A stretch of DNA of 64,000 nt, from NCBI GenBank assembly GCA_041630155.1, contig JBFKLX010000002.1:3769-67768 (forward strand), in the 5' to 3' direction. How positions within the stretch are numbered: position 1 is the first letter of the stretch; each line of letters opens with the position of its first letter. The notes below the pieces were generated by a model, which had not been told where the DNA came from, ran no database searches, and was given only the letters and a program-made list of their open reading frames with translations. Made by a program: the position numbers and the translations under genes. Positions 2,979 to 60,672 of this stretch are shown here, piece by piece. The DNA comes from Acidobacteriota bacterium. Its GTDB lineage: Bacteria; Acidobacteriota; UBA6911; RPQK01; JANQFM01.

Positions 2979-4191
2979 GATCCCCTCCTCCCAGAGAGCC
3001 CCGCTGTGCTCCAGCTTCCGGCGAGTGGGGTGGCTCCAGGAGACTGGACGCCGGTGACGCGTCCGCCGGCAATGCCGGCTTCAAACTCTCCTCAGGCGCC
3101 CCAAAACTCCCCGAAAGAAGCAACAGCAAAAGCGGGATACCGAAAAACACAATCAAGATATAGCTGACCGCCAGAGGGCGGCTGCGCACCGCCACGTCGC
3201 CCATCCAGCGCGCCAGCGCCAGCGGGATGCGACGAGTCGGCGGAGGAAGATAGATGAGCAGGGCGCCGCTGACGTTGAACATGAGATGGGCGAAGGCGAC
3301 CGTCAGCGCGGTGTGGCTCCCCAGGGCCAGCGACGCCATCAGAGCAGTCACGGTGGTTCCGATGTTGGCGCCGATCGTGAATGGAAAAGCCTGTTCCAGG
3401 GTGATGACCCCCGCAGCGATGAGCGGCACCAGCACCGAGGTGGTAATCGAGCTGCTCTGGACCATGACGGTCATCAGAATCCCGGCCAGGATGGCCGCCG
3501 CAACGGACCGAAAGAGCGTCCTGTGCAGCACGGCCTCGGCTTTGCCCGAGAGCACCTTTCTGAGAAACACCACCAGGTAGCGTAGAGCAAGAAACAGCAG
3601 GGTCACCCCCAGGATCAAGGTCAATGTCGGCGAGTGCCCCATGCCGTCGCTGATCGAGTCGGCCACGGGTCGAACCACCGCCCGCAACGGGTTCAGAAGA
3701 GGCATGCCTCCGGCGCCCTCCAGAAGATTGGCGAGCCAACTGGAGAAGCGCCCCAGGAATCCCAGGGCGAGTTCCAGCGGAAACAGCAACAGCACCGCCA
3801 TCCAGTTGAAGAAGTCGTGCACCGTGGCACCCGCGAACGCCCGCCGGAACTCCTCGGTGCGGTTCACGTGCGCCAGCGCCACGATGGTGTTGGTGACCGA
3901 GGTGCCGATGTTGGCGCCCATAATGATGGGAATCGCTCCCTCGATGGTCAACGCTCCCGCACTCACCATCGCCACGGTCATCGAGGTCGTGCTGGAAGAG
4001 CTCTGGACCAGGCTGGTGGCCAAAACACCCACGAACAGGCCCACGAACGGGTTGGAAGTGGTCTCGATCAGGGCCTCGGCGAACCCTTTTCCGAACAGCT
4101 TGAAAGCCAGCTGCATCATTTCCAGGCCGAGGAAAAAGCCATAGAGGAGAACCGCCAGGGTCAGCAACCGCGCCAGCATGCCCTTCATCAA
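2956..4191 (-). CDS. Na+/phosphate cotransporter (NptA / Na-Pi cotransporter II-related family)
   Basis: Duplicated 'QSSS.TTS' and 'GANIGT.VT' repeats characteristic of Na/Pi-II transporters. Multiple TM helices. Confidence 0.85.
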   Translation of the reverse strand: MMKGMLARLLTLAVLLYGFFLGLEMMQLAFKLFGKGFAEALIETTSNPFVGLFVGVLATSLVQSSSSTTSMTVAMVSAGALTIEGAIPIIMGANIGTSVTNTIVALAHVNRTEEFRRAFAGATVHDFFNWMAVLLLFPLELALGFLGRFSSWLANLLEGAGGMPLLNPLRAVVRPVADSISDGMGHSPTLTLILGVTLLFLALRYLVVFLRKVLSGKAEAVLHRTLFRSVAAAILAGILMTVMVQSSSITTSVLVPLIAAGVITLEQAFPFTIGANIGTTVTALMASLALGSHTALTVAFAHLMFNVSGALLIYLPPPTRRIPLALARWMGDVAVRSRPLAVSYILIVFFGIPLLLLLLSGSFGAPEESLKPALPADASPASSLLEPPHSPEAGAQRGSLGGGDHARALVR

Positions 4192-6621: not shown

Positions 6622-7719
6622 TCACAGCAGCACGAAGTCGTTGCGGTGCACGACGGGGCCGTAGCTGTAGCCCAGGCGCTCCTCGATGCCACTGGAATGG
6701 CAGCCGGCGATGCGCTCGAGGGCCTGGCTCGAATAGCGGCTGATGCCTCTCCCCAGCTCTTTCGACTCGGGGTCCAACACGACCACGGCGTCCCCCCGCT
6801 CGAACTGGTTCTCGACGCGCAGCAGACCGGCCGGAAGCAGCGACCTGCCCTGCTCGGCCAGCGCGCGGGCGGCGCCAGCGTCCACCTGCAGGCGGCCGCT
6901 GGGTTTGGGTCCCGCCAGGATCCAGCGTTTGCGGTTCTCGAGCGGGCTCTCCAAAGCCGCGAAACGCGTCCCTCGAGGCTGGCCCTGGAGGACGTCAGAG
7001 ATCACTCCGGGAATGCGTCCCGAGGCGATCACCACATCGGCGCCGGCCCGGCGTGCCAGATCCGCCGCCTGCAGCTTGGTGATCATCCCACCCACTCCCA
7101 GGCCGCTGACGCTCTCTCCGGCCAGGCGCTGGATCGACTCGTCGATGTCGCGCACCTCCGGGATCAGCTCTGCTTCGGGGTGGCGGCGAGGATCGGCCGT
7201 GAACAACCCGCTCTGGTCGGTCAGCAGCAGGAGTAGATCGGCTTCGGCCAGGATCGCGACCCGCGCCGACAGATTGTCGTTGTCTCCCACTTTGATCTCG
7301 TCCGTGGCCACGGCGTCGTTTTCGTTGACGATCGGGATGATGCGCTGCGACACCAATGCCTGCAAGGTGTCGCGGGCGTTCAGAAAGCGGTGGCGGTCTT
7401 CCAGGTCTGCCCGGGTCAGCAACATCTGTCCCACCCGGATGCCGTAGATGTCGAAGAGGCGCTCCCAGCTGAGCATCAGGCGACTCTGCCCCACCGCCGC
7501 CAGCATCTGCTGGTTGGTGAGTGTCGGGGCCAGCTCGGGGAATCCCAAGACTTCCCTCCCCGCCGCGATGGCACCCGAGGTGCAGAGGACCACCTCCAGG
7601 CCGCCGGCGTGCGCTTCGGCAAACTGGCGCACCAGCTCCAGCATCTGGGGACGGTCCAGGCTGCGGGTACCCCCCGTCAGCACGCTGGTTCCCAACTTGA
7701 CCACCAAACGCCGGTACAT
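6622..7719 (-). CDS. proB: Glutamate 5-kinase with C-terminal PUA domain
   Basis: 'VVKLGTS.LT', '[10 protein letters not shown]' and 'GDNDNLSA' motifs, plus a C-terminal PUA domain. The start is placed at the MYRRL methionine (residue 57 of the track ORF); the upstream extension is R/P-rich and non-conserved. Confidence 0.9.
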
Positions 7720-7892
7720 CGCGCCAGATAGTGTAGCGGAAAGATCCGCCCGCTCAACGCCCCGGTGCCTGGCGGGATGGCGGCCCGATGGGGACAGGGC
7801 AAGTTCAGCACTGGCCGGCTGACGGTTCGCAGGCGGCCTTGTGAGGGGAAGTTCCGGCCAGGAGGCACCTCCATTGGCTATAATCACACGTC

Positions 7893-38794: not shown

Positions 38795-39705
38795 GTCAGG
38801 TCCATTTCCCGTTTCCCGAAGAAGAACTCCTCAGCACGGGGCACCTGGGTTGCCAGGGCTGCGGCGCCGCTCTGGCCATGCGCCACGTGCTCAAAGGCCT
38901 GGGCGAGAAGACCGTCGTGGTAATCCCGGCTTGTTGCTGGTCAATCATCGCGGGCCCCTTCCCCTATTCGGCCCTCCGCGTCCCCGTGTTGCACACGGCT
39001 TTCGAGACAGCAGCCGCGTCGGCTTGCGGGGTGCGGGCCGCGCTGGACTGCAAGGGGGACCGCGAGACCACGGTCATGGCTTGGGCGGGAGACGGCGGGA
39101 CCTTCGACATCGGACTTCAGGCACTTTCCGGAGCCGCCGAGCGGAACGAGAACATCCTTTACGTGTGCTACGACAACGAGGCCTACATGAACACGGGTGT
39201 CCAAAGCAGCTCGGCAACCCCCTGGGGCGCCTGGACTACCACGACTCCCGATTACAAGAAACAGTCCAAGAAGGACATCATGCGGATCATGGCGGCTCAC
39301 GGGATCCCCTACGCCGCAACCGCATCCGTGGCTCACCCGGATGACCTGGTGCGGAAAGTGCAAAGCGCCCGGGACATCGAAGGGATGCGTTTCCTGCACG
39401 TGCTGGCGCCCTGCCCACCGGGCTGGAAGATCCCCTCCGAGCTCGCGATCAAGCTGGCCCGTCTGGCCGTCCAGACACGGATGTTTCCCCTCTTCGAAAT
39501 CGAAGACGGCCTGCGCTGCCGGCTCAGCCCGGTGGCCGACCCGCAACCGCTCGAAGAGTACCTGCGCCTGCAGGGCCGCTTCAGCCATCTGAGCGAGCGG
39601 GACGTCCAGCACCTGCAACGGATGGTGGACGAGCGCTGGGAGCAGCTCGAGAACTGGGCGGCACGCGAGCCCGTCTCGACGCCGGCCGTGCCGGCGAAGT
39701 CGTAA
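38791..39705 (+). CDS. porB: 2-oxoacid:ferredoxin oxidoreductase beta subunit (TPP-binding)
   Basis: 'CQGCG' motif. 'GDGG.FDIG...N' is a TPP-binding GDG...N motif. 'VCYDNEAYMNTG'. ATGA overlap with porA. Confidence 0.85.
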   Translation: MSQVHFPFPEEELLSTGHLGCQGCGAALAMRHVLKGLGEKTVVVIPACCWSIIAGPFPYSALRVPVLHTAFETAAASACGVRAALDCKGDRETTVMAWAGDGGTFDIGLQALSGAAERNENILYVCYDNEAYMNTGVQSSSATPWGAWTTTTPDYKKQSKKDIMRIMAAHGIPYAATASVAHPDDLVRKVQSARDIEGMRFLHVLAPCPPGWKIPSELAIKLARLAVQTRMFPLFEIEDGLRCRLSPVADPQPLEEYLRLQGRFSHLSERDVQHLQRMVDERWEQLENWAAREPVSTPAVPAKS

Positions 39706-39920
39706 AAGCCAGCATCCCTCGCCAAACCCGCGCGCCAGCGCTCCTGGTCGACGGCCCGGCCGATCCGCGACTCTTCGCCGGCGGCCTGGCACCCCAGCCG
39801 AGGCGTTCCCATTCACCCCCTCGCCGTCCATCGCGCCCCTGCCGATCCACCGATCCCAGGCCTCCACTGCCAGCCTTCGCCATCCCCTCTCCACAGCAAC
39901 CGAGTCGCTGTCCAGAGAGG

Positions 39921-39965
39921 CTCGATTTTCACTCACGTGTCACATTAGATTCTAGAATCTAAATA
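39921..39965. repeat. AT-rich 45-bp element, copy A (ctcgattttcactcacgtgtcacattagattctagaatctaaata)
   Basis: Direct near-identical copy of the element at 40530-40573. Strongly AT-rich in a roughly 65% GC genome. Contains the -10-like sequence TAGAAT. Confidence 0.7.
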
Positions 39966-40140
39966 TCTTCATAAAATAGAACTCTTCTCCTATTAGATCC
40001 CGTACTGGACACCCGGCTGAAAGAGAATTGCCCTGTCCCCTTTCCCGTCCCCTCTCCCGCTTGTGCTCGGGGGTTCGACCCGGCGTCGGTCCGATTGTGC
40101 CCTGTCCCCAGCCGGCCATCCGCACGGGCGGATCTGTGCC

Positions 40141-40192
40141 CTGTCCCCAGGTTTTTCGCTGTCCCCAGGTTTTTCTGTCCCCAGGTTTTTCG
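40141..40192. repeat. Tandem repeat, three units of CTGTCCCCAGGTTTTT(CG)
   Basis: Three adjacent units of 18, 16 and 18 bp seen directly in the sequence. Each unit embeds the second half of the dispersed motif (TGTCCCC). Confidence 0.8.
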
Positions 40193-40529
40193 ACCCGGTT
40201 TCCAGCTGTGACCCCGGGAGGTCTGGAGGTCTGAAGGCAGACGGAGAGTGTGTGAATCCTGCCCTGTCCTCATTCTCCGTTCGTTCCCACCTCGTCCCCG
40301 TCAGCCGGCCTCGGTCCGACTTCTGCCCTGTCCCCAGCCTGTCTGCCGCCTACGTCGAGGGCCCAGACGAGGCTCAACCGTTGGCCGGCATCCTCACACA
40401 CGGTCGACTCGTTGCGATTCACAACCCACTCCCACCCTCATCGCTGCCCTACCTCTCTGACGACTCGAAGCCCACCCTCGCCACCCTCGCCACCCTCCCC
40501 ACAAACCCCGAATGGCTGCCTGACACGCG

Positions 40530-40573
40530 CTCGACTTTTACTCATTTTTCACATTAGAACCTATAATCTAAAT
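40530..40573. repeat. AT-rich 45-bp element, copy B (ctcgacttttactcatttttcacattagaacctataatctaaata)
   Basis: Direct copy of the 39921 element (about 80% identity). Contains a perfect TATAAT. Confidence 0.7.
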
Positions 40574-41373
40574 AGCCGTAAAAAAGTTATTAATCTTAGG
40601 CGCAATTCCGTTCCCTGATGGAAACGAGCTGCCACAGAGTTGTCCAGCCCCTGTCACCCGGCCCGTCCGATTCTGCCCTGTCCCCAGTCTGCCCAGCCTG
40701 GCGAGAGCCAAGGGAAATTCACGAAGCTGCTGGAATCCTGGCCCGCGCCGCCTGGCAGGCGTCACATCTGCCCTATCTCCCAAGAGCCTTCGATCGGGTT
40801 TCAGCGGTGAGCTCCTGGGGGTCTGGATGCAACGGTTGTCCTGAATCTTGCCCTGTCCCCTATGATTCCCTTCTGCGCACTCTGCCGGGGACGGAGAATC
40901 GCTGAGGCGCGGCTGCCTGGTTGGGTGATCTGACCCGTGGGGGGTGCTTATTACACTGCCTGCTGGAAGCATCACTGTTCACACACTCCGAACCCACCTC
41001 TTCAATCTGAACAGTCCCCCGCGCTCCCCTTGCGCTCTGAGGATGACCCGGGCTGGCTCGGGTGGCCGCGCCTCGAATGACTCTCTGGCACATTGGGCTG
41101 GCTGCCTCGGCTCGGCCGGAAGGCCCTTCAGCACAAGGCTTCCCGCGCTTCGCGACGCATCAAATGCGAATCGCAGGCCAATCGAGCCGCAGCAGCTCCC
41201 GGGCCGGGATCGACCGCCTTCTGCGCCGGTCATCCCCGATCCGAGGGGACTCGGCAACCGATTGGCGAGCCGACAGCGGTATAGAAGTTGCTTCGCTGTC
41301 TGCATTCGACGGATTAGAGAATCCGGTACACGCAGAATGCTTTCGAGCCGCATTTCTGGAAGGGGGTCCAGCT

Positions 41374-43071
41374 ATGACAAGGCGAACTTTACGACTCAGC
41401 TTACTGGCAATCACGATCTCCGTGCCAGCCTTCGTGCGGGCCGATGGAGACTATCGCTCGGTCGACACGGAGGGTCCTGAGAGCCGCTCTGGCCACACCC
41501 TGAGCGGAGTGTACATGTTCGGAGGTCGGAGCGACGAAGGAGACGTCTTCGATGAACTCTGGGAGTTTGGCTTTGATGGGGAGACTGGCTTTGATCCTGA
41601 ATGGAACGAAGTGCCTTTCATTGACCCCTGGCCCGCGGGGCGCTGGGGTCACGTCTCCTGGGTCTCGGACCGCTACCTTTACATTGCGGGCGGCCGCGGC
41701 GCCGACTCCCAGTTCATCCCGGACGCGTGGCGCTTCGACACCGTCGCCAGGACCTGGCAGGAGATCGAATTCTATCCAGGCCCGCACCAGGTCGCCGGAG
41801 GAGCCGCCTCACACGACAACAACGGCTACCTGTTTGCCACCGAGGACGGCGCGATCCATACGTACGACGAGGAGACCAACCAATGGGAGACGCTACTCCC
41901 CGACAGCGGGCCCACCCAGCGCTCTCATAGCACCGTGGTCCAGAATATCCCCCCCGGACCCGCCAATGGTCAGCAGCCGCTTCAGAATGGCAACTCGTCG
42001 AAAGCCTGGGTGATCGGCGGTGCCAACGCGTCTGGCATCTCGAGCGAAGTTTGGGAGTTCGACTTCGCCACTCAAAGCTGGACCCGGCGGGCCGATCTGC
42101 CCGTGGCTCTGTCCAGCCTGGCCGGAGCTTACGATGATCAGCGAGATCGAGTGCTGGTTTTTGGCGGCGTGAGCCCCGAGGGTTTCAGCCGAGCCACCTG
42201 GGAGTACGATCCCGCCACGGATTCCTGGACGCGACGTCTCGACATGCCTGAGGCCCTAGTACTGTCCGGGGCCACGGCCACTGGCGAAGGGGGAACAATC
42301 ATCTTCGGGGGCCGCAGGAGCGACCAGACCGCTTCGGGACGAACACTCGCCTATCGCTCCGGCGAGACCCTGTACATGGCTCAGTTCGGCAACGGCCAGG
42401 GGTTCACCAGCGACATCGTGTTGGCCAACCCCACCGCCGACCAGACAGCTTCGGGCACGATTTCCTTTGCCGGAAACGAAGGACTTCCCCTGGAGGTCAC
42501 GATCGTGGGGGACACTGGATCAGCGTCCGCTCATCGAATCATTCCCCTTCAGGCCGGTTCAGAGGTGGAGTTCTCCATCCCTCCGCGAGCCAGCATCACG
42601 CTGTCGACGGACGGCCAAGGCGATTTGGTCGAGGGCTCCGCACGGGTTCTCTCAAACCTCCGCCTGGGAGGAGTGATCCGCTTCAGCATCCCCGCAATCG
42701 GGATTGCGGGCGTGGGGGCGAGTCCCCCGATGGACGGTTTCATTGTCCCGGTGCGACGCCAGGCGGGAGGTATCAACACCGGTCTGGCCATCTTCAGCCG
42801 GGAAGTGAGGCCGGTCACTCTCGTGCTGACGCTCTACAGTGATGGTCAGCAGATTGCGACCACGACGATCGAAGATTTCGTGGCCCGGGCCCACCTGGCC
42901 CGCTTCATCGATGGCCTCTTTCCCGAGGTCGACACCACCGACTTCGTAGGAACAGTGGTGGTCGAAGTGATCGACGGCCAAGTCACTGCCACGGCCCTTG
43001 AGCTCGGCCGCCAGCCCGGCCAGTTCACCACTCTACCGGTGACTCCCCTGGAGCCGAGCCCCAGTTCGTGA
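41374..43071 (+). CDS. Secreted Kelch-repeat (galactose-oxidase-like beta-propeller) protein with a C-terminal beta-rich domain
   Basis: Signal peptide 'MTRRTLRLSLLAITISVPAFVRA'. Repeated 'GG...W.FD/YD....W' Kelch blades. The start is placed at residue 105 of the track ORF. Confidence 0.7.
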   Translation: MTRRTLRLSLLAITISVPAFVRADGDYRSVDTEGPESRSGHTLSGVYMFGGRSDEGDVFDELWEFGFDGETGFDPEWNEVPFIDPWPAGRWGHVSWVSDRYLYIAGGRGADSQFIPDAWRFDTVARTWQEIEFYPGPHQVAGGAASHDNNGYLFATEDGAIHTYDEETNQWETLLPDSGPTQRSHSTVVQNIPPGPANGQQPLQNGNSSKAWVIGGANASGISSEVWEFDFATQSWTRRADLPVALSSLAGAYDDQRDRVLVFGGVSPEGFSRATWEYDPATDSWTRRLDMPEALVLSGATATGEGGTIIFGGRRSDQTASGRTLAYRSGETLYMAQFGNGQGFTSDIVLANPTADQTASGTISFAGNEGLPLEVTIVGDTGSASAHRIIPLQAGSEVEFSIPPRASITLSTDGQGDLVEGSARVLSNLRLGGVIRFSIPAIGIAGVGASPPMDGFIVPVRRQAGGINTGLAIFSREVRPVTLVLTLYSDGQQIATTTIEDFVARAHLARFIDGLFPEVDTTDFVGTVVVEVIDGQVTATALELGRQPGQFTTLPVTPLEPSPSS

Positions 43072-43145
43072 AGAATGAGTCACGGGGTACGGGAAGGAGC
43101 ACGAGGGGCAGGGCACTTTGTCCGGCTTGCCTCCTACAAAAAAAT

Positions 43146-43231
43146 TGCCCTGTCCTCACTCCCGAGAGTGCCCTGTCCCTGTCTCCAACTAGACTCCCAA
43201 CTAGAAGGTCGATGAAGTTTGCCCTGTCCCC
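43146..43231 (+). repeat. Second cluster of the TGCCCTGTCC[CT]C motif, three copies
   Basis: Copies at about 43146, 43169 and 43220. They lie between the convergent Kelch gene and the Cys-rich protein gene. One further copy sits at 51110-51121. Confidence 0.7.
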
Positions 43232-43362
43232 AAAAGATAGTCCCCAAAAGATAAAGAGAAGAGAGAACGAAATCTGGAGTGAGCTTCCTCCCAGGGCAGG
43301 GGTATTCTCTCTCGCGCGAGTCTGAGGAATGGACTGGGTTCTTCGTGAGAGTGTTCAATTCA

Positions 43363-43803
43363 TCACTGCTTCACGACCACCTCGAATATGCACGTGCCAC
43401 CAACGGAACAGCTCCCCTCGCATGCGATGATTCCGTCGATGATCCTGACCTTGCAGTTGCTGGAACCACTCGAAGAACAGGTGCAACTGAAAGTGCCCTT
43501 GACTCCGGCTGCTCCCTGCTTTCTCAAAACCAGCCTGTTTCTGGCCGCGATTTCGAATTCGTAGCCTTTCTCGAGGCTCAGTCGATTTCCCTCCAGCTTC
43601 ACTCCCTCGGGAACTCTTCGTCGTTGGGTCACCGTTCGTCCGGGCTGCTCCTCGGACCCCTCGAAACTCTCGGCTGCGGCAACGACTTTGGCGCGTTCTC
43701 GGGGAGTCGAAGGGTAGGTGTGACCTGAACTTGTTGCTTTCTTTGCGATCGCCGGGGCCATCAGAATGACCGCCAGTGCCGGAAGCAGAATTCTCCCGCT
43801 CAT
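43363..43803 (-). CDS. Small secreted Cys-rich hypothetical protein (146 aa)
   Basis: Strong RBS, GGAGGAACaaaATG. Signal peptide 'MSGRILLPALAVILMAPAIA'. Six cysteines in the last 40 residues, 'CTCSSSGSSNCKVRIIDGIIACEGSCSVGGTC'. GC content and codon usage are lower than in neighbouring genes. Confidence 0.6.
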   Translation of the reverse strand: MSGRILLPALAVILMAPAIAKKATSSGHTYPSTPRERAKVVAAAESFEGSEEQPGRTVTQRRRVPEGVKLEGNRLSLEKGYEFEIAARNRLVLRKQGAAGVKGTFSCTCSSSGSSNCKVRIIDGIIACEGSCSVGGTCIFEVVVKQ

Positions 43804-44008
43804 TTTGTTCCTCCGTTTGTTTCAACTCGTTTCGTCAGGTCGGGATTCACCTTCCGCGAGAAGGCTTCACTGTTGCACTCCTTTCTAACCGAATCAGGTG
43901 GAAGTTTCAATGGGCCAGGTCTCTCTCGAGGCGAGGGCTCGGTGTGGTTGCACCGGAGTGGAGGTGCCGGAAAACTCCCGTTTCCCGCCACTGACGGCGC
44001 AACTCGGC

Positions 44009-44698
44009 TCAAGCGGGAACACTCATCGGTCGTCCGTTGTCCTTGGGTCCCAGGCCCAAGAGAAATGGAACGGCTCGTCTCGCCCACTGTCGGGGACTCG
44101 GATGGGAAGCCGCGCTTGGTCCAAAGCAGCTCTCCAACATCTGAGTGTGAATCACTCCTGGATTGAGAGGCACCGCCGCCATCCCTTCCGGTAATTCCTG
44201 GGCCAATGCGCGCGTCAGGCCTTCAATGGCCCATTTGGTCGCGCAATAGGGAGCCACCTCCCGCGACGTGGACCGCCCCCAGCCGGAACTGAAATTGACG
44301 ATCACGCCTCTGCCACGCTCGACCATCGCCGGTACGATGTGACGAACGAGGTGATACACGCCTTTGATATTGACATCCACGACCTTCGAAAACTCTTCGC
44401 CGGGGACTTCCCACAGGGGTGCGTTCCGGTTGATCAAAGCCGCGTTGTTGAGCAGCAAGTCGGGTGGGCCGAAATCGGCCAGGATGATTTCAGCCCAGCG
44501 GCGAACTTCCTCTTCGAGACACACATCGACGGTCTCGAAACGGTGCGGGCGCGGATAGCGATGGCGCAGTTCCTCAATCTGCTGTCGTGAGCGCGCACAG
44601 CCCAGCACGGTATGCCCGCGCCGAGCGAATCCATCCACCATCGCGCGTCCCAGGCCCCGGCTCGCACCAGTCAGCAAAACCCGTTTCGACTCCCCCAT
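44009..44698 (-). CDS. SDR family oxidoreductase
   Basis: 'VLLTGASRGLGRAM' Rossmann motif, 'NNAA', and YxxxK in 'YCATKWA'. Confidence 0.8.
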   Translation of the reverse strand: MGESKRVLLTGASRGLGRAMVDGFARRGHTVLGCARSRQQIEELRHRYPRPHRFETVDVCLEEEVRRWAEIILADFGPPDLLLNNAALINRNAPLWEVPGEEFSKVVDVNIKGVYHLVRHIVPAMVERGRGVIVNFSSGWGRSTSREVAPYCATKWAIEGLTRALAQELPEGMAAVPLNPGVIHTQMLESCFGPSAASHPSPRQWARRAVPFLLGLGPKDNGRPMSVPA

Positions 44699-44868
44699 GG
44701 CAACACTCTATCACCCGGGAACCGAAGCTTTACGGACGGCAGATTCTCGAGACTCCACGGATCGAAAGTGCCGCGAAGTGCCAGTCGATTGAAGACCTGG
44801 TTGGGGACCGGGCAAATTGCGAATTGCGGACCCGATCAGGGGCTTGGATCGATGCTGGCGGGCCGATC

Positions 44869-45948
44869 TCAGGCAATCTTGCGCAGCTGTCGGTAGAGCG
44901 TGTCGCGCTGGGCGGGGACGTAGCCGGCTTCTTCCACGAGCCGGATCAAATCCTGGCTGGTGGCCTTGCGGTGGGCTCCGGCCGAACTGATCACGTTCTC
45001 CTCGATCATGATGCTGCCCACGTCGTTGGCGCCGAAATGCAGGGCAATCTGGGCCACTTTCAAGCCTTGCGTCAACCACGAGACTTGGATGTTCTGGATA
45101 TTGTCCAGGTAGATGCGGCTGACCGCCAGCAGGAGAAGATACTCAACCGCTGAAACCTCGGTCTTGATGGTCTGGGACATCGGCGTCCCTTCCAGCTGGA
45201 CGTTCCAGGGAATGAACGCCACGAACCCTCCGGTCTCATCCTGCAGGCGGCGCAGTCTCTCCAGGTGTTCCACCCGCTCCTCCAAAGTCTCGCCCCCCCC
45301 GATCATCATCGTGGCGGTCGTCAGCAGGCCCTCTTCGTGAGCAATGCGCATGATGTCGAGCCACTCCTGCGCAGTACATTTGCCCGGACCGATTTCCCGG
45401 CGCATCCGTTCGGTCAGGATCTCGGCGCCCCCCCCTGGGATGGAATCCAAGCCCGCCGCCTTGAGGCGACGGATGGCCTCCCGAAAGGAGATCCGGCTCA
45501 GCCTTGCCAGGACCACGATTTCCGGGGGGGAAAAGCAGTGGAGGTGAATCGGGAAGCGCTGGCGGATGGAGCGCAACAGATCTTCGTAGTAATCGATCTT
45601 CAAGTCGGGATTCATGCCCCCCTGCATGAGAATCCCAGTTCCCCCCAGTTGGAGCGTTTCCTCGATCTTGCGAAAGATCTCCTCGTGCTCCAGAAGGTAG
45701 CCTTCCTCGTGCCTGGGCTTGCGATAGAAGTTGCAGAAGGTGCAACGTGCCACGCAGACGTTGGTGTAGTTGATATTGCGGTCGATCAGAAACGACACAA
45801 TGTTGCCGGGATGCTTGCGGCGACGGACGCAATCGGCCGCTTCGCCGATGGCGGCCAGATCGTGCGACCGCAGCAGCACGAGACCCTCCTCGGGCGTGAG
45901 GCGTTTCCCTGCCTGAACCGACTCGAGGATTTCCGGAACACTCCTCAT
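44869..45948 (-). CDS. Radical SAM enzyme of the MqnC/MqnE/CofH family (futalosine-pathway type)
   Basis: 'NINYTNVCVARCTFCNFY' is a CxxxCxxC motif in MqnC/MqnE-like context. 'GGTGILMQGG'. The C-terminal barrel is shared with MqnC/MqnE/CofH. The start is placed at M51 of the track ORF. Confidence 0.7.
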   Translation of the reverse strand: MRSVPEILESVQAGKRLTPEEGLVLLRSHDLAAIGEAADCVRRRKHPGNIVSFLIDRNINYTNVCVARCTFCNFYRKPRHEEGYLLEHEEIFRKIEETLQLGGTGILMQGGMNPDLKIDYYEDLLRSIRQRFPIHLHCFSPPEIVVLARLSRISFREAIRRLKAAGLDSIPGGGAEILTERMRREIGPGKCTAQEWLDIMRIAHEEGLLTTATMMIGGGETLEERVEHLERLRRLQDETGGFVAFIPWNVQLEGTPMSQTIKTEVSAVEYLLLLAVSRIYLDNIQNIQVSWLTQGLKVAQIALHFGANDVGSIMIEENVISSAGAHRKATSQDLIRLVEEAGYVPAQRDTLYRQLRKIA

Positions 45949-46116
45949 CCTCACTATTGTAGAGGCTTGTTCGGACCGGCGCCAAGTGGGCGCGACGGGT
46001 GAGCTGCCCGCCGGCGGCGGGAAGCTCCCCATCGACGAGCCAAGCCAGCTCCGGGATTCGGGTCGCGGCTCAGCGCGATTCGAGCGGCCCACGGCCAAAT
46101 CGACTAGAATGAAGGC

Positions 46117-46710
46117 ATGACAGCTCGCAGTATTTTCTGCATCCTGTGCTTGCTGGGTCTCGCCTTCCAGGTACCGCCGGCGGGACGCCGCAATCTACCG
46201 CCTCCCTTGCGGCTGCACGTGCCGTTCGAGACCGTCTGGAAGGTCACTGAAACCGAGCTCGAGACCGAGCAGGAGGAGCCGCTCCTTTTGAAGGATCGCG
46301 CCCAGGGGCGGTTCATGACTCCGTTCCGCGAATTCAGCTCGGGCCTGCTCACCGAGAGCCATATCGAAAAGATCGGCGAAAGGCCCAAGCTGATCGACGC
46401 TGTGTGGAAGAGCGTCCAGTATCAGTACGACGTCGGGCTCACGTTGATCGACGACAAGCAGACCCTGCTGACCGTGGACGTCAACATCCGGGCTCTCAAA
46501 CGGGAATTCCTGGGTGCGGAAAGCTGGGTCAACATTCCCTCCAATGGCCGTCTGGAGACTGACCTGCTCAACCTGATCGGACGCAACCTCTTCGGCCAGT
46601 CCTTCTCCCTGGCTGCACCCAAGAAGGGCTTCTGGGAACGTGAACCTGGCTACATCCAGGACGCCGAAATCAACCCTCAGGTAATCGGCCCGGAGCGCAA
46701 GCGGCCGTGA
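46117..46710 (+). CDS. Hypothetical secreted/lipoprotein
   Basis: N-terminal signal peptide. No catalytic motifs. Confidence 0.45.
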   Translation: MTARSIFCILCLLGLAFQVPPAGRRNLPPPLRLHVPFETVWKVTETELETEQEEPLLLKDRAQGRFMTPFREFSSGLLTESHIEKIGERPKLIDAVWKSVQYQYDVGLTLIDDKQTLLTVDVNIRALKREFLGAESWVNIPSNGRLETDLLNLIGRNLFGQSFSLAAPKKGFWEREPGYIQDAEINPQVIGPERKRP

Positions 46711-46755
46711 GCCGCTTTGCTTGGGCCTCGGGAAACCACCCTTGTCGAGTGAAAC

Positions 46756-47415
46756 ATGAACCCGGAAGCACTCATCATTCTGGAGCAAAGCGTGCGTTGG
46801 GCGCTGTTGGCCTTCCTGGGCAGCTTCCTCATTTTGGCGCTCTACAGCTGGACCCGCCTGCGGCGACGACGCCGGGGGCTGGCCGACCTGATGCACGAGC
46901 AGTTGGACGCGGAGCTGAGCGAGGCACTGGGCCTGGACGAAGCCCAGGACACCGCCCTCCAGCTCACCCCGTCCAACCGCCTGCGGCCGTTTTTCTACTC
47001 GTTTCTGCTGGCGGGCGTCGTTTCCGTGGCCACCTTCCTGCTGTGCAGCTTCGCTCCCCTCCCTTTCCTGCACAACTTCGCCACCGAGGCCAGCTGGCGT
47101 GAGACGCCGTTGCGACTGACCGCAGTCGATTACGAACGCTTCTTCGAGGGGTTCAGTCTGGAGGGGCAGGTCTGGAACCAGCAGGATCAGGCTCTCGCCT
47201 CGATCACGGCGCACATCGAGGTGCTGGACGCGCAGCGCCAGGTGCTGGACGAGGTGAGTGCACAGGTGAAGCCAACTCCGCTGGCCCCGGCCCAATCGGG
47301 GAAATTCGAGGTGCGTTACACGGAGAACTCCCCCCTGATCTACGGTTACCGAATCGCTTTCCGGGACGCCGAAGGCAACCAGATTCCGCATGTTGAAGGG
47401 TTCGAGATTCGCTGA
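46756..47415 (+). CDS. Hypothetical membrane protein (two TM helices plus a soluble C-terminal domain)
   Basis: Hydrophobic segments 'WALLAFLGSFLILALY' and 'FFYSFLLAGVVSVATFLL'. The large minus-strand ORF antisense to it looks like compositional noise. Confidence 0.45.
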   Translation: MNPEALIILEQSVRWALLAFLGSFLILALYSWTRLRRRRRGLADLMHEQLDAELSEALGLDEAQDTALQLTPSNRLRPFFYSFLLAGVVSVATFLLCSFAPLPFLHNFATEASWRETPLRLTAVDYERFFEGFSLEGQVWNQQDQALASITAHIEVLDAQRQVLDEVSAQVKPTPLAPAQSGKFEVRYTENSPLIYGYRIAFRDAEGNQIPHVEGFEIR

Positions 47416-49147
47416 ACACCCGTTGGCCGGTCTGATTCCCTATCTGGGCCGCTATCGCGCCAAGCTGCTGCTGGGGACCGGAATGGTGCTGGCAACCAAC
47501 GCGGTGGCGGTAGTCACACCCTGGGTGCTGGGACGCGCCATCGACGACCTGAGGCTGGAAGTCACCCGTGACAAGCTACTGATCTACGCCACGGTCCTGG
47601 TGGGGCTCAGCGCTCTGGAGGGGGTCTTCCGTTTCCTGATGCGCAGCGTGCTGATCGGCACCTCCAGGCGCCTCGAGTTCGACCTCCGCAGCGACCTGTA
47701 CGCCCATCTGTTGCGCCTCACCCCTTCGTTTTACCAGCGCTACACCACGGGGGACCTGATGTCGCGTGCCACCAACGACCTGAGCGCCGTGCGCAGTGTC
47801 CTGGGGCCGGGCATCATGTACTCTCTGAACACCCTGTTCACCACTGTTCTGACCGTGAGCCTGCTGATCTCGATCGACCCGTCGCTGGCCCTGTACACCC
47901 TGATTCCACTGGTGGCGGTCTCGGTCTGCGCCCGCTATTTCGGCAGCCAGATCCACCGACGCTTTCGAAGCATTCAGGAGCAATTCTCGGAACTGACTTC
48001 GCTGGTTCAGGAAAACGTGGCGGGCATGCGGGTGGTCAAAGCCTACAACCAGGAGCCGGCCTTCGTCCGGCGCTTCGCCGAGAGCAACCGGATCTACGTG
48101 GATCGCAGCCTGGGTCTGGCCCGTATCTCGGGACTCTTCCACCCCAGCCTGGCCCTGCTGTTGGGGCTCTCTTCGCTGACCCTGCTCGGCCTGGGGGGAT
48201 GGAAGGTGACGTTGGGTGAAATCAGCCTGGGAGACCTGGTCGCCTTCATGGCCTATCTGGCCATGCTCACCTGGCCCACCATTGCCCTGGGCTGGGTGAT
48301 CAACATCGTGGAACGCGGCTCTGCATCGATGCGGCGAATCCAAGACCTGCTGGACTCACGACCGGCAATCTCGGTTCCGAACTCTTCAGCGACAGACATC
48401 ACCGCCGGTTCCATTGAAGTTTCCGATTTGAGCTTCGCCTACGACGGACCCCAGGCCCTGCAGGACATCAGCTTCGAGGTGCCAGCCGGCTCCACACTGG
48501 CGATCGTGGGCCGCACCGGATCGGGGAAATCCACACTGGCCAACCTGCTCTGTCACTTCTATCCCGTGGAGCGCGGCCAGATCCGCATCGACGGCGAGGA
48601 TCTGAACGACATCCCGCTGGAAGTCCTGCGCCGCCGCATCGCCTACGTTCCTCAGGACACGTTCCTATTCTCGGACACGGTGCGCGGAAACATCGCCTTC
48701 GGACGCCCCCAGGCCACCCGGGACCAGGTCGAAAAGATGGCCCGCACCAGTGACATCTGGTCCGACATCCAGAGATTTCCCGAGCAGTTGGACACCTTCG
48801 TGGGCGAGCGCGGGGTGACCCTGTCGGGGGGCCAGAAACAGCGCATCGCCATCAGTCGCGCGCTGCTCGTGGACGCTCCCATCCTGATCCTGGACGATTC
48901 ACTGTCCAGCGTGGACACCCAGACGGAGGAACGCATTCTGGAGCGGCTGGCAGGGCAGCTGCGAAAGCGCTCGGCGATTGTCATTTCCCATCGGATTTCG
49001 ACGGTGAAGGGGGCCGACCAGATCCTGGTCATGGACGAGGGCCGAATCGTCGAACGCGGCACGCATCGCCAACTGGTGGATCAGGAGGGACTCTACCGGC
49101 AGCTTTATGAGCGGCAGCTCTTACAGGAGGAGCTTGGAATCGAATGA
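47390..49147 (+). CDS. ABC transporter permease/ATP-binding fusion (type I exporter, MsbA-like), half 1
   Basis: Six-TM domain followed by Walker A 'GRTGSGKST', signature 'LSGGQKQR' and Walker B 'ILILDD'. Confidence 0.9.
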   Translation: MLKGSRFAEHPLAGLIPYLGRYRAKLLLGTGMVLATNAVAVVTPWVLGRAIDDLRLEVTRDKLLIYATVLVGLSALEGVFRFLMRSVLIGTSRRLEFDLRSDLYAHLLRLTPSFYQRYTTGDLMSRATNDLSAVRSVLGPGIMYSLNTLFTTVLTVSLLISIDPSLALYTLIPLVAVSVCARYFGSQIHRRFRSIQEQFSELTSLVQENVAGMRVVKAYNQEPAFVRRFAESNRIYVDRSLGLARISGLFHPSLALLLGLSSLTLLGLGGWKVTLGEISLGDLVAFMAYLAMLTWPTIALGWVINIVERGSASMRRIQDLLDSRPAISVPNSSATDITAGSIEVSDLSFAYDGPQALQDISFEVPAGSTLAIVGRTGSGKSTLANLLCHFYPVERGQIRIDGEDLNDIPLEVLRRRIAYVPQDTFLFSDTVRGNIAFGRPQATRDQVEKMARTSDIWSDIQRFPEQLDTFVGERGVTLSGGQKQRIAISRALLVDAPILILDDSLSSVDTQTEERILERLAGQLRKRSAIVISHRISTVKGADQILVMDEGRIVERGTHRQLVDQEGLYRQLYERQLLQEELGIE

Positions 49148-50922
49148 CGGCTCCCTGGGAAGAGAAAGACCGCAGCGGCTACGATTCCCACCTGGCACGC
49201 AGGCTGTTCGGCTACCTGGCTCCCTACCGAAAGGTCGTGGCCACGGCCGTGGTGCTGCTGCTGGGATTGTCGGCGGTTCGCCTGGCTGGCCCCTATCTCA
49301 CCAAGGTCGCCATCGACGGACCCATCCGCAACGAGGATCCGCAGGGATTGCTCTACATCACCTTGCTGTTTCTGCTGCTCCTGATCGCCCAGTTCGGACT
49401 CGGTTATCTCCAGACGTACTGGACCAACTGGATCGGGCAGCAGGTCATGTCCGACCTGCGCCGCCAGCTTTTCGGGCACCTGCAGAAACAGGACGCGGCC
49501 TTCTTCGACCGCACGCCGGCCGGCCGCATCATCACGCGCATCACCAATGATGTCGACGTCATGAACGACTTGTTCACGTCCGGCGTAGTGAGCGTCTTCG
49601 GAGACGCCTTCTCGCTGCTCGGAATCGTTGTGATCATGCTCCTGATGAACTGGAAGCTGGCCCTGGTCTGCTTTTCAGTGATTCCTTTGCTCTTCCTGCT
49701 CACGCTCTGGTTCAAGCTGCGGGTGCGCGACAGCTACCGCCGCGTTCGGGGGGCCGTAGCCGCCATCAACGGCTTCCTGCAGGAGAGCTTCACCGGCATG
49801 GCGGTCACCCAGATGTTCGTTCAGGAGGGGCGTAAGTTCGGAGAGTTCGAAAAGCACAACCGCCGGCACATGCAGGCCAACCTCGACTCCATCTTCTACT
49901 ATGCCGTCTTCTACCCCGCCGTCAACCTGGTGGGGGCCCTGGCGATCGCCCTGATTCTCTGGGCGGGCGGCATCCAGGTCCTGGACGCCGGGCTCACCCT
50001 GGGAGCAGTCGTAGCCTTCATTCAGTATTCGGAACGCTTCTACAAACCGATCAGCGACTTGAGCGAAAAGGTCAACATCCTGCAGAGCGCCATGGCCAGC
50101 GCAGAACGCATCTTCGGACTCCTGGACACGGGACCGACCATTCGACCGCCCCAGCGGCCGCACCGTGCCCCCGTGCAGGGCCAGATCCATTTCGATCGAG
50201 TCAGCTTCTGGTATCGGGAAGGGACGCCGGTGCTGCACGGAGTCGATTTGAGAGTCGAGCCGGGAGAGAAAGTCGCCATCGTGGGGGCAACCGGTTCGGG
50301 AAAGACGACGCTGATCAACCTCCTGGGACGGCTCTACGACGTCTGTGAAGGGGCCGTTCGGGTCGACGGGACGGACCTCCGACAGTGGGAACCGGAGGCC
50401 TTGCGGCAATCGATCGCGGTCGTACTACAGGACGTTTTTCTGTTCAACGGCAGCGTCGGGGACAACATCCGGCTCTGGAGCGGGCGGGTCACGGATTCAG
50501 CGGCTCAACAGGCGGCTCGCCGGGTGGCGGCTGACCGCTTCATCCAGCGGCTGCCCGCTGCTTACCAGTCCCCCGTGCGGGAACGGGGCTCGGCGCTCTC
50601 GGTGGGACAGCGACAGCTCCTGGCGTTCGCCCGTGCGCTGGCCCACGATCCCCGAATTCTGGTCCTGGACGAGGCGACCTCGTCGGTGGACACGGAAACC
50701 GAACAGCTCATTCAGAAGGCGCTGGCAGAGCTCATGGAGGGGCGCACCGCCCTGATCATCGCCCACCGTCTGTCGACCATCCAGCATTGCGATCGGATCG
50801 TCGTGCTTCACCGGGGCGAAATTCGGGAGGAAGGCACCCATCAGCAGCTGCTGCGGCAGCGCGGCATCTACTTCAAACTCTACCAGTTGCAGTACAAGGA
50901 CCAACTGGTCGACGCCGTCTGA
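49144..50922 (+). CDS. ABC transporter permease/ATP-binding fusion (type I exporter), half 2
   Basis: Walker A 'GATGSGKTT', signature 'LSVGQRQL' and Walker B 'ILVLDEATS'. Overlaps the upstream partner, so the two likely form a heterodimeric exporter. Confidence 0.9.
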   Translation: MTAPWEEKDRSGYDSHLARRLFGYLAPYRKVVATAVVLLLGLSAVRLAGPYLTKVAIDGPIRNEDPQGLLYITLLFLLLLIAQFGLGYLQTYWTNWIGQQVMSDLRRQLFGHLQKQDAAFFDRTPAGRIITRITNDVDVMNDLFTSGVVSVFGDAFSLLGIVVIMLLMNWKLALVCFSVIPLLFLLTLWFKLRVRDSYRRVRGAVAAINGFLQESFTGMAVTQMFVQEGRKFGEFEKHNRRHMQANLDSIFYYAVFYPAVNLVGALAIALILWAGGIQVLDAGLTLGAVVAFIQYSERFYKPISDLSEKVNILQSAMASAERIFGLLDTGPTIRPPQRPHRAPVQGQIHFDRVSFWYREGTPVLHGVDLRVEPGEKVAIVGATGSGKTTLINLLGRLYDVCEGAVRVDGTDLRQWEPEALRQSIAVVLQDVFLFNGSVGDNIRLWSGRVTDSAAQQAARRVAADRFIQRLPAAYQSPVRERGSALSVGQRQLLAFARALAHDPRILVLDEATSSVDTETEQLIQKALAELMEGRTALIIAHRLSTIQHCDRIVVLHRGEIREEGTHQQLLRQRGIYFKLYQLQYKDQLVDAV

Positions 50923-51170
50923 CCCACCGGCTGAATGGGCTCAGGCTGCTGTGCCCGCTGGTCCTGGTGTTCCGATGGGTCGATCATCTTTCGCGGAGTC
51001 GCCACTCCGGATCCTGTCGATCCTGTGATCCCTCCCGAGACCCGGATTCGATTCCGGAGACAGGACAGGATCCTCCGAGCCTCGGCGGGGAAACCCGGTC
51101 GAGGGAACTTGCCCTGTCCCCCAAAATGGGGCACCAAGCCCCGCGTTGCTGCACGGGGCGGGGGCGGATG

Positions 51171-58861: not shown

Positions 58862-59112
58862 GCCCTTGGCTCGTGACACCGGCCCGCCGCCGGTGATCCG
58901 TTGGTCGTGAGACCAAGCCTCCCAGCCGGTGATTCGGGGCCCTCGTGTTCACTGCTGACACCGGCCGTCGAGGCCGGTTTGGTGTGCACGCGGACGGCAT
59001 CGTGCCCACGGTCCCCGGGACGGAAGGCAATCGTCAGCTCTTTCTAAGGGGCTTTCGCCAGGGCCTTTTGCTCCCGGAATGCTGGCGAAACGAGGCTTGG
59101 AGGTATTCCAGC

Positions 59113-60672
59113 TTGGGATGCAACGCGCTCAACTCGGCAGGTCAGCGAGTTGCGTCACTGCTGTTGCTCGGCCTGAGCACGTGCAGCTTTCCTGCGGGCG
59201 AGCCGGCCACTCCGGAATCCCCTTCGGGCGTCCGTACTCCGTCCCCCCGGTCCCAGTCCGAAAAAGCCGAAACTCCCTTGATCGAAGCCGTTCGCTCCGG
59301 CAACGAGCTTCTGGCGGAGCAACTCGTCTCTCGGGCCGAAGCCGACGGCCGCGGACTGCATGGCCGGACTGCCCTCATGTACGCTGCAGCCGGGGGCAAG
59401 ATCGGGGTAGTCCGTCGCCTCCTGGAGGCGGGAGCCGATCCGCACCTGACGGACGACTCGGGCAACACGGCGCTCTTCTTCCTCCCCCAGGAGGACGACC
59501 CGACCATCGCGCGCCTGTTGGTGGAAGCCGGCGCCGACGTCAATCGGACCAATCGATCCGGAGCGACTCCCCTTGTCACGGCCGCCCGGCTCGGTCACAC
59601 CGAAATCGCCCGCTATCTGCTCGAGCAGGGGGCGTCGGCTCGTGGCGACCCTGCCATCCTGATCGAGGCGATGCGCAATGTTCGCCTGGAGACGGCTCGG
59701 CTCCTCTTGGAGTCCGGCGCGGCGCCCAATCCGGCCCTGAAGGACGGCCGATCGCTGCTGCACGAGATTGCCGAGAGGGGCGAGCTGGAAGCTGTTCGGC
59801 TCCTGCTCGAGCGCGGGGTGGTGCCCGATCGTGAAGCCCCTGCTGACAGTTGTTGCCCGGGGCAGACCCCGCTGATGGCCGCGGCGGCCAACGGACACCG
59901 GGAGGTCGTCTCCCTCCTTCTCGAACGCAGAGCCCGTCCCGACGGCTCGAGCCAGGCCCGCACTACCCCGCTCCTGCTGGCCATCGGTGGCGGACACCTG
60001 GAGGTCGTGAGGCTGCTCCTGAAGGCAGGCGCGAACGTCGACCGACGGGGACGGGAGGAGTCACGCCCGACACCACTCTTGCTCGCCGCCATGGAGGGCC
60101 AACCCGAGATCCTCCGGCTGCTGTTGGACGCCGGTGCCGATCCCAACGCCCGCAACCGCCACGGCGTGACACCTCTGATGTTTGCCGCTTTCCATGGACG
60201 GACGGAGACGGCCCGCCTGTTGCTCCGGCAACGGGTCGAGTTGGAGGCAGTCAACCAGGACGGCAACACTGCCTTGATGCTGGCGGTCTTCCGGCGCCAC
60301 GCTCCGGTGGTGAAGTTGCTGCTCGAGCGGGGAGCGTCCGTCGATGTTCGCAACCACATCGGGGGGTTCGGCTTCGTCAGCCCACTCATGCTGGCGGCCG
60401 GTCGCGGCGATCTGGAGATCGCACATGACCTGCTGGAGCACGGCGCCGCCCCCGACCAGTTCGACGAAGTGGAAGAGCTGGGGCACATCAGCCCACTCAT
60501 GCTGGCGGCGCGCCGAGGGTTCAACGACCTCGTGACCCTGCTGCTGGAGCATGGAGCCGATCCGGGACTCCAGGACGACAGCGGCCAAACCGCGCGCGAC
60601 TGGGCGCGCCAGAACGATCGACCGGAAGTCGAGGCCATCCTGGAGCGTGCCACCCGAGAGAGGCCGAGGTGA
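59113..60672 (+). CDS. Ankyrin-repeat lipoprotein (at least 12 ANK repeats)
   Basis: Repeated 'G.TALM.AA..GH.EVV.LLLE.GA..' units. Putative lipoprotein signal with lipobox 'LLLLGLSTC'. A TTG start with an upstream GGAGG is proposed, since there is no in-frame ATG upstream of the signal peptide. Confidence 0.7.
   Translation: MGCNALNSAGQRVASLLLLGLSTCSFPAGEPATPESPSGVRTPSPRSQSEKAETPLIEAVRSGNELLAEQLVSRAEADGRGLHGRTALMYAAAGGKIGVVRRLLEAGADPHLTDDSGNTALFFLPQEDDPTIARLLVEAGADVNRTNRSGATPLVTAARLGHTEIARYLLEQGASARGDPAILIEAMRNVRLETARLLLESGAAPNPALKDGRSLLHEIAERGELEAVRLLLERGVVPDREAPADSCCPGQTPLMAAAANGHREVVSLLLERRARPDGSSQARTTPLLLAIGGGHLEVVRLLLKAGANVDRRGREESRPTPLLLAAMEGQPEILRLLLDAGADPNARNRHGVTPLMFAAFHGRTETARLLLRQRVELEAVNQDGNTALMLAVFRRHAPVVKLLLERGASVDVRNHIGGFGFVSPLMLAAGRGDLEIAHDLLEHGAAPDQFDEVEELGHISPLMLAARRGFNDLVTLLLEHGADPGLQDDSGQTARDWARQNDRPEVEAILERATRERPR

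Follow-up and report, generated by a model that had tools for sequence, protein, structure and literature searches.

We propose that the 12-mer TGCCCTGTCCCC, which recurs through a 64 kb stretch of an Acidobacteriota bacterium (contig JBFKLX010000002.1; the whole stretch is called the window here), is probably the outer tip of the terminal inverted repeat (TIR) of RAYT-like HUH/Y1 (TIRYT) elements, present in the window as gene-less copies. A complete element would read 5'-GGGGACAGGGCA ... transposase gene ... TGCCCTGTCCCC-3', where GGGGACAGGGCA is the reverse complement of the 12-mer, and the window would hold gene-less copies only, mostly right-end-type tips in a single orientation together with two imperfect left/right pairs. 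Such copies may owe their spread and local amplification to a transposase whose gene lies outside the window, elsewhere in the genome, and their survival between genes only could reflect the loss of insertions that fell into genes. Most likely the copies serve the host in no dedicated way, and incidental effects on transcription are possible.

The repeat family is real, as was originally predicted: TGCCCTGTCCCC has nine exact matches in the window against 0.02 expected, and none of 100 shuffles reached this number. Eight exact copies lie on the plus strand, with starts at 40029, 40098, 40137, 40324, 40674, 40849, 43220 and 51110, and one on the minus strand (7790-7801). A further four copies carry one mismatch, three on the plus strand (40260, 43146 and 43169) and one on the minus strand (44803). 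All 13 of these copies are intergenic, in agreement with the original prediction. The eleven copies counted in that prediction correspond to the eight exact and three one-mismatch copies of the plus strand; the first of them was placed at 40028 and an exact search gives 40029, and the statement that every copy lies on the plus strand is wrong, the minus-strand copies at 7790-7801 (exact) and 44803-44814 (one mismatch) having been overlooked. Matches with two mismatches outside the clusters occur at about chance frequency (26 against 13 expected). Spacing between copies is irregular, from 39 to 350 nt, and the inside flank of the 13 copies shows a weak consensus, g-R-A-w-y-t before the 12-mer, with an A after it. 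A longer context, (C/G)GTCCGA(T/C)T.., is indeed common to three copies as had been reported, but it is approximate and there is an indel among them.

Similar tips flank transposase genes in other genomes. One genome per species, from 185,579 species, was scanned for two motif copies within 12-42 nt, which returned 58 loci. Fifteen of these come from 10 Planctomycetota genomes, where additional dispersed copies occur on both strands, each followed by a partial duplication that we call the stutter and describe below. Most of the remaining loci are single clean tandem arrays, some of them possibly due to chance; five are from Chloroflexota, and arrays of the 12-mer also occur in Acidobacteriota, Myxococcota and other phyla. 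The closest relatives of the window ProB are Chloroflexota proteins (approximately 70% identity to the named matches); so far as ProB is a guide, the carrier probably belongs to Chloroflexota and is therefore probably not a planctomycete. With this, and with arrays in several phyla, the idea of a Planctomycete-specific motif was dropped. At three Pirellulaceae loci (L017, L034 and L051), read with the transposase gene on the plus strand, G-rich tips GGGGACAGGGCA are located upstream of the gene and C-rich TGCCCTGTCCCC-type tips downstream; the tips around the transposase gene are TIRs. The upstream tips nearest the gene in L017 have one mismatch to GGGGACAGGGCA, and the downstream tips are exact TGCCCTGTCCCC in L034 and variant or one-mismatch forms in L017 and L051. 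Tips are found downstream of the transposase gene at L046, and in a Myxococcales metagenome-assembled genome (MAG), the founder of a second, shorter RAYT-like subfamily, the exact 12-mer is present downstream of the gene only. Variant tips flank the genes of L063-L069, L089-L093 and L100-L101 (Table 1), and GGGGAC.../...GTCCCC is constant across all of them.

The product of these genes resembles HUH/Y1 tyrosine transposases. An open reading frame (ORF) beside the arrays of a Pirellulaceae MAG matches the NCBIfam model NF047646, REP-associated tyrosine transposase (E=6e-8; 32.6 bits against a cut-off of 80), and Pfam Y1_Tnp (PF01797; E=8.5e-4, under the curated cut-off), and contains the HUH motif SNHFHLIL and the tyrosine motif AYVDLNPIRA. 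A full-length gene of 355-367 aa is present at three of the 15 Planctomycetota loci, with the HUH (N-H-x-H) and Tyr (AYVDLNxIRA) motifs invariant. When the motif-fished loci were searched with tblastn, full-length homologues were obtained from Rubripirellula obstinata (71% identity) and another Pirellulaceae MAG (56%), along with fragments, and N70-H71-x-H73 and Y184 (YVDLN) are invariant across 27 homologues. The proposed parent transposase is a Y1 enzyme and not a DDE enzyme. The family is large, with at least 4144 homologues in one search and matches to 8350 clusters at 50% identity; its members are named 'transposase', 'Transposase IS200-like domain-containing protein' or 'REP element-mobilizing transposase RayT' in the sources, and PF01797 is precomputed for several of them. 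Many of the contigs bearing homologues measure only 1-2 kb, and breaks of metagenomic contigs within the gene are frequent, as expected of a multi-copy element. The protein, of approximately 360 aa, has a conserved C-terminal region in which no Pfam helix-turn-helix (HTH) match was found even at E up to 5 and where the structure model is poor. Its best sequence match in the PDB is ISDra2 TnpA (E=0.22).

Elements of this type have been described as TIRtrons, which are RAYT-like genes flanked by TIRs instead of repetitive extragenic palindromic (REP) hairpins and whose enzymes are termed TIRYTs (Di Nocera et al., 2013; PMC3733652). Many of their TIRs share GGGGWSAS, the members of TIR families stand alone, in dimers or in clusters, and Rhodopirellula baltica is rich in such genes and repeats; for REP clusters, the same study mentions tandem repetition together with the adjoining DNA. 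TIRYTs constitute subclass 2.1 of TnpA_REP; the proteins are long, being extended at the C terminus by an HTH-like region, and their genes are flanked by GGGG[AT][CG]A[CG] (Quentin et al., 2018; PMC6006769). The first 8 nt of GGGGACAGGGCA, GGGGACAG, fit this published consensus (PMC3733652; PMC6006769). The likeness extends to the inverted copies that flank long RAYT-like Y1 genes in other genomes, to the gene-less intergenic copies found as singles, pairs and clusters, and to the matches themselves, which are dominated by Pirellulaceae here, R. baltica being the species named in PMC3733652. The present case differs in that the window lacks a TIRYT gene, in that its host is probably a member of Chloroflexota, going by ProB, and in that the conserved part is 12 nt, identical across phyla, compared with the published 8-nt consensus. 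A literature search with the 12-mer string gave only irrelevant eukaryotic or viral matches.

The repeat also resembles REPs, bacterial interspersed mosaic elements (BIMEs) and REP doublets forming hairpins (REPINs), the partners of RAYT (TnpA_REP), as these too are short, abundant and clustered intergenic repeats, in tandem with flanking DNA, that are thought to be mobilized in trans by a single-strand-specific HUH/Y1 enzyme. With two window sites being imperfect inverted pairs, and with the associated gene family called RayT in some sources, the 12-mer could be taken for a classical REP hairpin, BIME or REPIN of the GTAG or CGTC type. We consider this extremely unlikely: REPs are imperfect palindromes of 20-40 nt that carry such a tag, whereas the 12-mer is not self-complementary and GTAG and CGTC are absent within 8 nt of all 13 copies. 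The search for inverted copies that the original prediction had recommended gave the two imperfect pairs at 43104-43157 and 51056-51121 and left most copies without an inverted partner, and the hairpins of the pairs are weak (z -0.96 and -1.92 for the first, -0.72 and -1.72 for the second). A hairpin-plus-tag structure is thus already contradicted. Relative to IS200/IS605 transposons such as IS608 and ISDra2, the transposases belong to the same superfamily, with HUH and a catalytic Tyr, their best, although weak, matches are ISDra2 TnpA and its relatives, and no target-site duplication is seen. However, IS200/IS605 ends are subterminal hairpins and not inverted repeats starting with GGGG, and the transposases here are approximately 2.5 times longer. 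Miniature inverted-repeat transposable elements (MITEs) have paired TIRs and a target-site duplication, whereas the window has its two imperfect pairs, neither of them with flanking direct repeats, and otherwise solo ends. The 43104-43157 pair resembles a gene-less mini-element, and gene-less pairs of ends 55-90 nt apart are represented by both window pairs and by one in Rubripirellula (L035). The suggestion of a REP- or MITE-like repeat was therefore essentially right in kind, the 12-mer being a TIR tip beside RAYT-like Y1 genes elsewhere.

A further line of evidence for the 12-mer as a TIRYT element tip is the stutter, in which part of the outer tip and the next outside flank (6-10 nt) are duplicated. 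Three exact copies in the window have it (Table 1), and at element ends in other genomes it is located outside the tip at both ends, in mirror symmetry. At the Planctomycete loci the outside 7-mer was repeated within 58 nt at 40 of 64 tips, against 3% of random positions, and the inside 7-mer at 18 of 64. In the window the outside 7-mer was repeated at two of nine tips (0.8% at random) and the inside 7-mer at none of the nine. Repeats in the clean tandem arrays of other phyla are symmetrical (42 against 44 of 102). As the repetition is biased to the outside in both the Planctomycete loci and the window, the window copies carry the boundary signature of transposase-adjacent tips. The stutter copies may be scars of activity, or of slippage, at the element boundary. 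A term search of PMC3733652 retrieved no description of a stutter at the outside junction, nor of TIR tips arrayed as right ends in a single orientation. More speculatively, and with the balance of probability against it, the 12-nt tip could be the single-strand recognition and cleavage code of several TIRYT lineages across phyla, and the stutter could result directly from nicking and rejoining by the transposase or from stalled forks, a process which would build one-orientation tip arrays and even in-frame expansions within genes (as in a Phycisphaera ORF, GDRAA/PQTSGDR). If this were true, one could read in the arrays the traces of a transposition chemistry still to be elucidated for the TIRYT family.

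Several results weigh against the proposal that the window copies are TIRYT element tips. Neither tblastn nor a profile search in six frames detected a transposase gene or a fragment of one in the window, so that the transposase link rests on other genomes, and the genomes that supply it are mostly of another phylum than the window. The five Chloroflexota array loci have no Y1 gene within 8 kb; likewise, no Chloroflexota TIRYT came from a representative search or from cluster names. The main cluster in the window consists of right-end-type tips only, with no left-end partner, which a simple element model would not predict. None of 26 metagenome transposase loci has the exact 12-mer, these homologues of approximately 50% identity being associated with the GGGACACACC/GGTGTGTCCC variants only, and homologues on gammaproteobacterial plasmids (approximately 35% identity) have different flanks, again without the exact 12-mer. 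All transposase matches to hidden Markov models fall under the curated cut-offs, and the predicted structure is poor (mean predicted local distance difference test score, pLDDT, of 55), with Foldseek matches that include IS200/IS605 transposases and of which none is significant.

Comparison with related genomes bears on whether the copies serve the genes that they adjoin. Contigs of same-species MAGs match the window at 99.6-100% identity, with no polymorphism in the array. In a syntenic relative (ProB 81% identical, same gene order) the spacer upstream of proB is 74 nt long and has no motif, against 200 nt in the window; absence of both the copy and approximately 126 nt of spacer from the relative indicates a lineage-specific gain. 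The 21 kb locus of a more distant relative holds zero exact copies. This comparison helps to judge one alternative explanation, in which a host DNA-binding protein, such as a regulator or a nucleoid protein, would bind the copies as operator- or iteron-like sites and control the genes nearby. Direct arrays in the long spacer upstream of a Kelch-repeat gene, a copy approximately 70 nt upstream of proB and a perfect 18-bp palindrome at the head of the array would all fit such sites. Even so, we regard this as quite improbable, since the proB copy is missing from the syntenic relative, the genes beside the copies are unrelated in function, the spacing is irregular over the range given above, selection for binding explains the partial stutter copies poorly, and in other phyla the 12-mer flanks transposase genes as inverted tips. 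Two of the sites are also located between convergent gene ends. One is the 43.1 kb cluster, which was correctly placed in the original prediction: the Kelch gene (plus strand) ends at 43071 and a 146-aa gene lies on the minus strand at 43363-43803. The other is the 51056-51121 pair, between an ABC exporter gene (plus) and a sugar transferase gene (minus). The binding array offered as an option in that prediction has no independent support, transposase binding aside.

Another possibility is a role at the RNA level, with the copies acting as modules of a non-coding or sponge RNA or as C-rich, unstructured Rho-loading (rut) tracts in untranslated regions. Each window copy reads in the sense direction with respect to one or more of its adjacent genes, the plus strand of the array is C-rich (GC skew -0.19), and RNA of the array is less structured than shuffles (z +1.96), as is the case with rut sites. 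A hairpin followed by a T-run, as in intrinsic terminators, was found zero times in 39600-43500 (3.9 kb), where shuffles give 3.0. Such a role nonetheless seems improbable to us. Rfam gave zero matches at gathering score across the whole window, and the folding of unit A RNA is no better than shuffles on either strand (z +1.96 and +0.47), which leaves the structured-RNA option of the original prediction unsupported; this candidate was rejected. The falsity of the same-strand rule in the window counts against it as well, as do the two orientations found within a few hundred bases of each other elsewhere. Orientation is informative at only two of five window sites, the two orientations occur side by side in other genomes, including antisense to co-directional genes, and Rho does not need an exact 12-mer; an incidental effect on termination is nevertheless possible. 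A general rule linking orientation to transcription was discarded as well, as it is contradicted at loci in other genomes. Separately, the lack of terminator-like sites in this region may mean that the organism relies little on canonical intrinsic terminators, and a scan of 39.6-43.5 kb for sigma-70-like promoter patterns found none; with both scans negative, a promoter or terminator role for the repeat was rejected.

It is also conceivable that something else keeps the 12-mer abundant, for instance if it were a DNA-uptake-type signal or if a different mobile element, such as an IS110-family transposon, used it as its preferred target, and that its adjacency to Y1 genes is secondary. The exact 12-mer is common to several phyla, and in one Pirellulaceae MAG IS110-family transposases lie within or beside motif-flanked elements. 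Against this, tips are symmetric and inverted around Y1 genes at many independent loci and co-vary with the Y1 lineage, viral matches are zero and the IS110 genes are known here from one genome only, which makes such a drive very unlikely. The IS110-family (RNA-guided) transposase genes of that MAG (L017 3249-4883 and L026 497-1906, both on the minus strand) are within motif-flanked elements, and one of them disrupts a second TIRYT gene copy, of which only the C-terminal 160 residues (3252-3734) remain. IS110 elements target REPs in other bacteria, and perhaps they target motif-flanked elements in the same manner. Other candidates were also rejected. A tRNA-derived attachment site was dropped because the window has no tRNA or tmRNA gene, a plasmid-borne element because blastn of the array against plasmids gave zero matches, and a phage link because viral contigs match neither the two-copy pattern nor the AT-rich block described below. 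A polar motif of the KOPS or Chi type is inconsistent with both orientations occurring within a few hundred bases and with copies confined to intergenic DNA.

The positions of the individual copies are collected in Table 1. The main cluster lies in the 1.35 kb that separate the 2-oxoacid:ferredoxin oxidoreductase genes (ending at 39705) from the Kelch-repeat gene; its two units of approximately 600 nt align with 73% column identity, and repeat families D1-D10 were defined across them. The Kelch-repeat gene in its longest ORF (41062-43071; 669 aa from a GTG start codon at 41062) is probably overextended, as the gene is called at 565 aa in a same-species MAG; the shorter call would extend the array-bearing spacer to approximately 41370. 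The start codon of proB, at 7719, is confirmed by the called 365-aa product (100% identity and coverage). Each 600-nt unit is headed by an AT-rich block of 57 nt (39920-39976 and 40529-40585; 77% identical). The perfect 18-bp palindrome TTAGATTCTAGAATCTAA is present at 39945-39962 in the first block, and both blocks contain a TAGAAT/TATAAT hexamer. The block has only two copies in the window and zero in viral contigs; it could be an operator, a promoter or a small element of its own. The cumulative GC skew declines steadily, reaches about -2.28 near 59-60 kb and climbs thereafter; the turn near 59000-60000 could be a replication origin, a terminus or a mere change in the direction of the genes. 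For most motif copies, the strand rich in C coincides with the C-rich (plus) strand of the window.

Table 1. Copies of the 12-mer and associated features in the window, and variant tips around transposase genes in other genomes.
Position or genome	Strand	Feature	Details
7790-7801	-	Exact tip	70 nt upstream of proB
39920-41130	+	Two diverged tandem units of ~600 nt	39920-40528 and 40529-41130; hold the main tip cluster
40029-40058	+	Exact right-end-type tip with outside stutter	TGCCCTGTCCCC 40029-40040; stutter GTCCCCTTTCCC 40035-40046 and GTCCCCTCTCCC 40047-40058
40098-40109	+	Exact tip	Subterminal context cggtccgattg; family D3
40137-40192	+	Exact tip with outside stutter	Tip 40137-40148; unit CTGTCCCCAGGTTTTTCG three times, periods 18 and 16 nt (40141-40192); family D7
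40260-40271	+	One-mismatch tip TGCCCTGTCCTC	~70 nt of inside sequence in common with the 40849 copy
40324-40335	+	Exact tip	Context cggtccgacttc
40674-40685	+	Exact tip	Context ccgtccgattc
40769-40780	+	Degenerate tip TGCCCTATCTCC	Two mismatches; family D1
40849-40860	+	Exact tip	
43104-43157	.	Imperfect inverted pair	Left-end-like arm GGGGCAGGGCA 43104-43115 (two mismatches read on the minus strand), 30 nt, right-end-like tip TGCCCTGTCCTC 43146-43157
43169-43180	+	One-mismatch tip TGCCCTGTCCCT	
43220-43253	+	Exact tip with outside stutter	Tip 43220-43231; GTCCCCAAAAGATA twice (43226-43239 and 43240-43253)
44803-44814	-	One-mismatch tip TGCCCGGTCCCC	Between an MqnC-like radical SAM gene and a short-chain dehydrogenase gene (both on the minus strand)
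51056-51121	.	Imperfect inverted pair	Left-end-like arm GGAGACAGGACA 51056-51067 (two mismatches read on the minus strand), 42 nt, exact tip 51110-51121
Stieleria varia		Variant tips	Upstream GGGGACACAGCA; downstream TGCTCTGTCCCC
Novipirellula caenicola		Variant tips	Upstream GGGACA(C/G/T)AGCA; downstream TGCTGTGTCCC
Rhodopirellula sp. P2		Variant tips	Upstream GGGACAGAGCA; downstream TGCTCTGTCCCC
L092 (8.3 Mb contig)		Variant tips	Upstream GGGGACAGAGCA; downstream GTCTGTCCCC
Freshwater metagenome homologues (~50% identity)		Variant tips	Upstream GGGACACACC; downstream GGTGTGTCCC
L100 and L101 (relatives in the second, shorter RAYT-like subfamily)		Variant tips	Upstream GGGGACGGGGGGCG; downstream CGCCCCCCGTCCCC

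A number of loci in other genomes show further arrangements of the motif. In Rubripirellula obstinata (L035, 2175-2264) there is a 90-nt gene-less pair, GGGGACAGGGCA-N66-TGCCCTGTCCCC, whose fold as single-stranded DNA has z -3.2; the pair recurs in a tandem unit of approximately 290 nt and looks like a miniature element. A chaotic 1.2 kb array of GAGGTG and 12-mer fragments (L027, 1820-3040) runs straight into an ISL3-family transposase gene of which the C-terminal 90 residues are present, as though it had taken the place of the remainder. In Phycisphaera sp. RhM (L054, 6890-7180) motif arrays with periods of 15 and 21 nt are in frame within a 529-aa ORF on the opposite strand, and the repeats encoded by them, (GDRAA)n and (PQTSGDR)n, separate a predicted membrane helix from a C-terminal region; arrays are apparently tolerable within genes if the period is a multiple of three. 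Halalkalibacterium ligniniphilum, a low-GC member of the Bacillota (L028, 6600-7500), has a short RAYT-like gene flanked by GGGGTCAGAGCA and GCTCTGACCC, a T/C variant of the same tip consensus, and 3.7 kb from this gene an array in which TGCCCTGTCCCC is mixed with TGCTCTGACCAC.

If the 12-mer is the tip of TIRYT elements, a conspicuous intergenic repeat in an uncultured genome would be explained without new regulation. The spacers that bear it would be mobile-element debris, of a kind that also breaks short-read assemblies. For the TIRYT family, the conserved element end would be longer than published (12 nt against 8 nt) and more widely shared, and the boundary stutter could help in designing experiments on DNA cleavage and joining by these single-strand transposases, which have been little studied.

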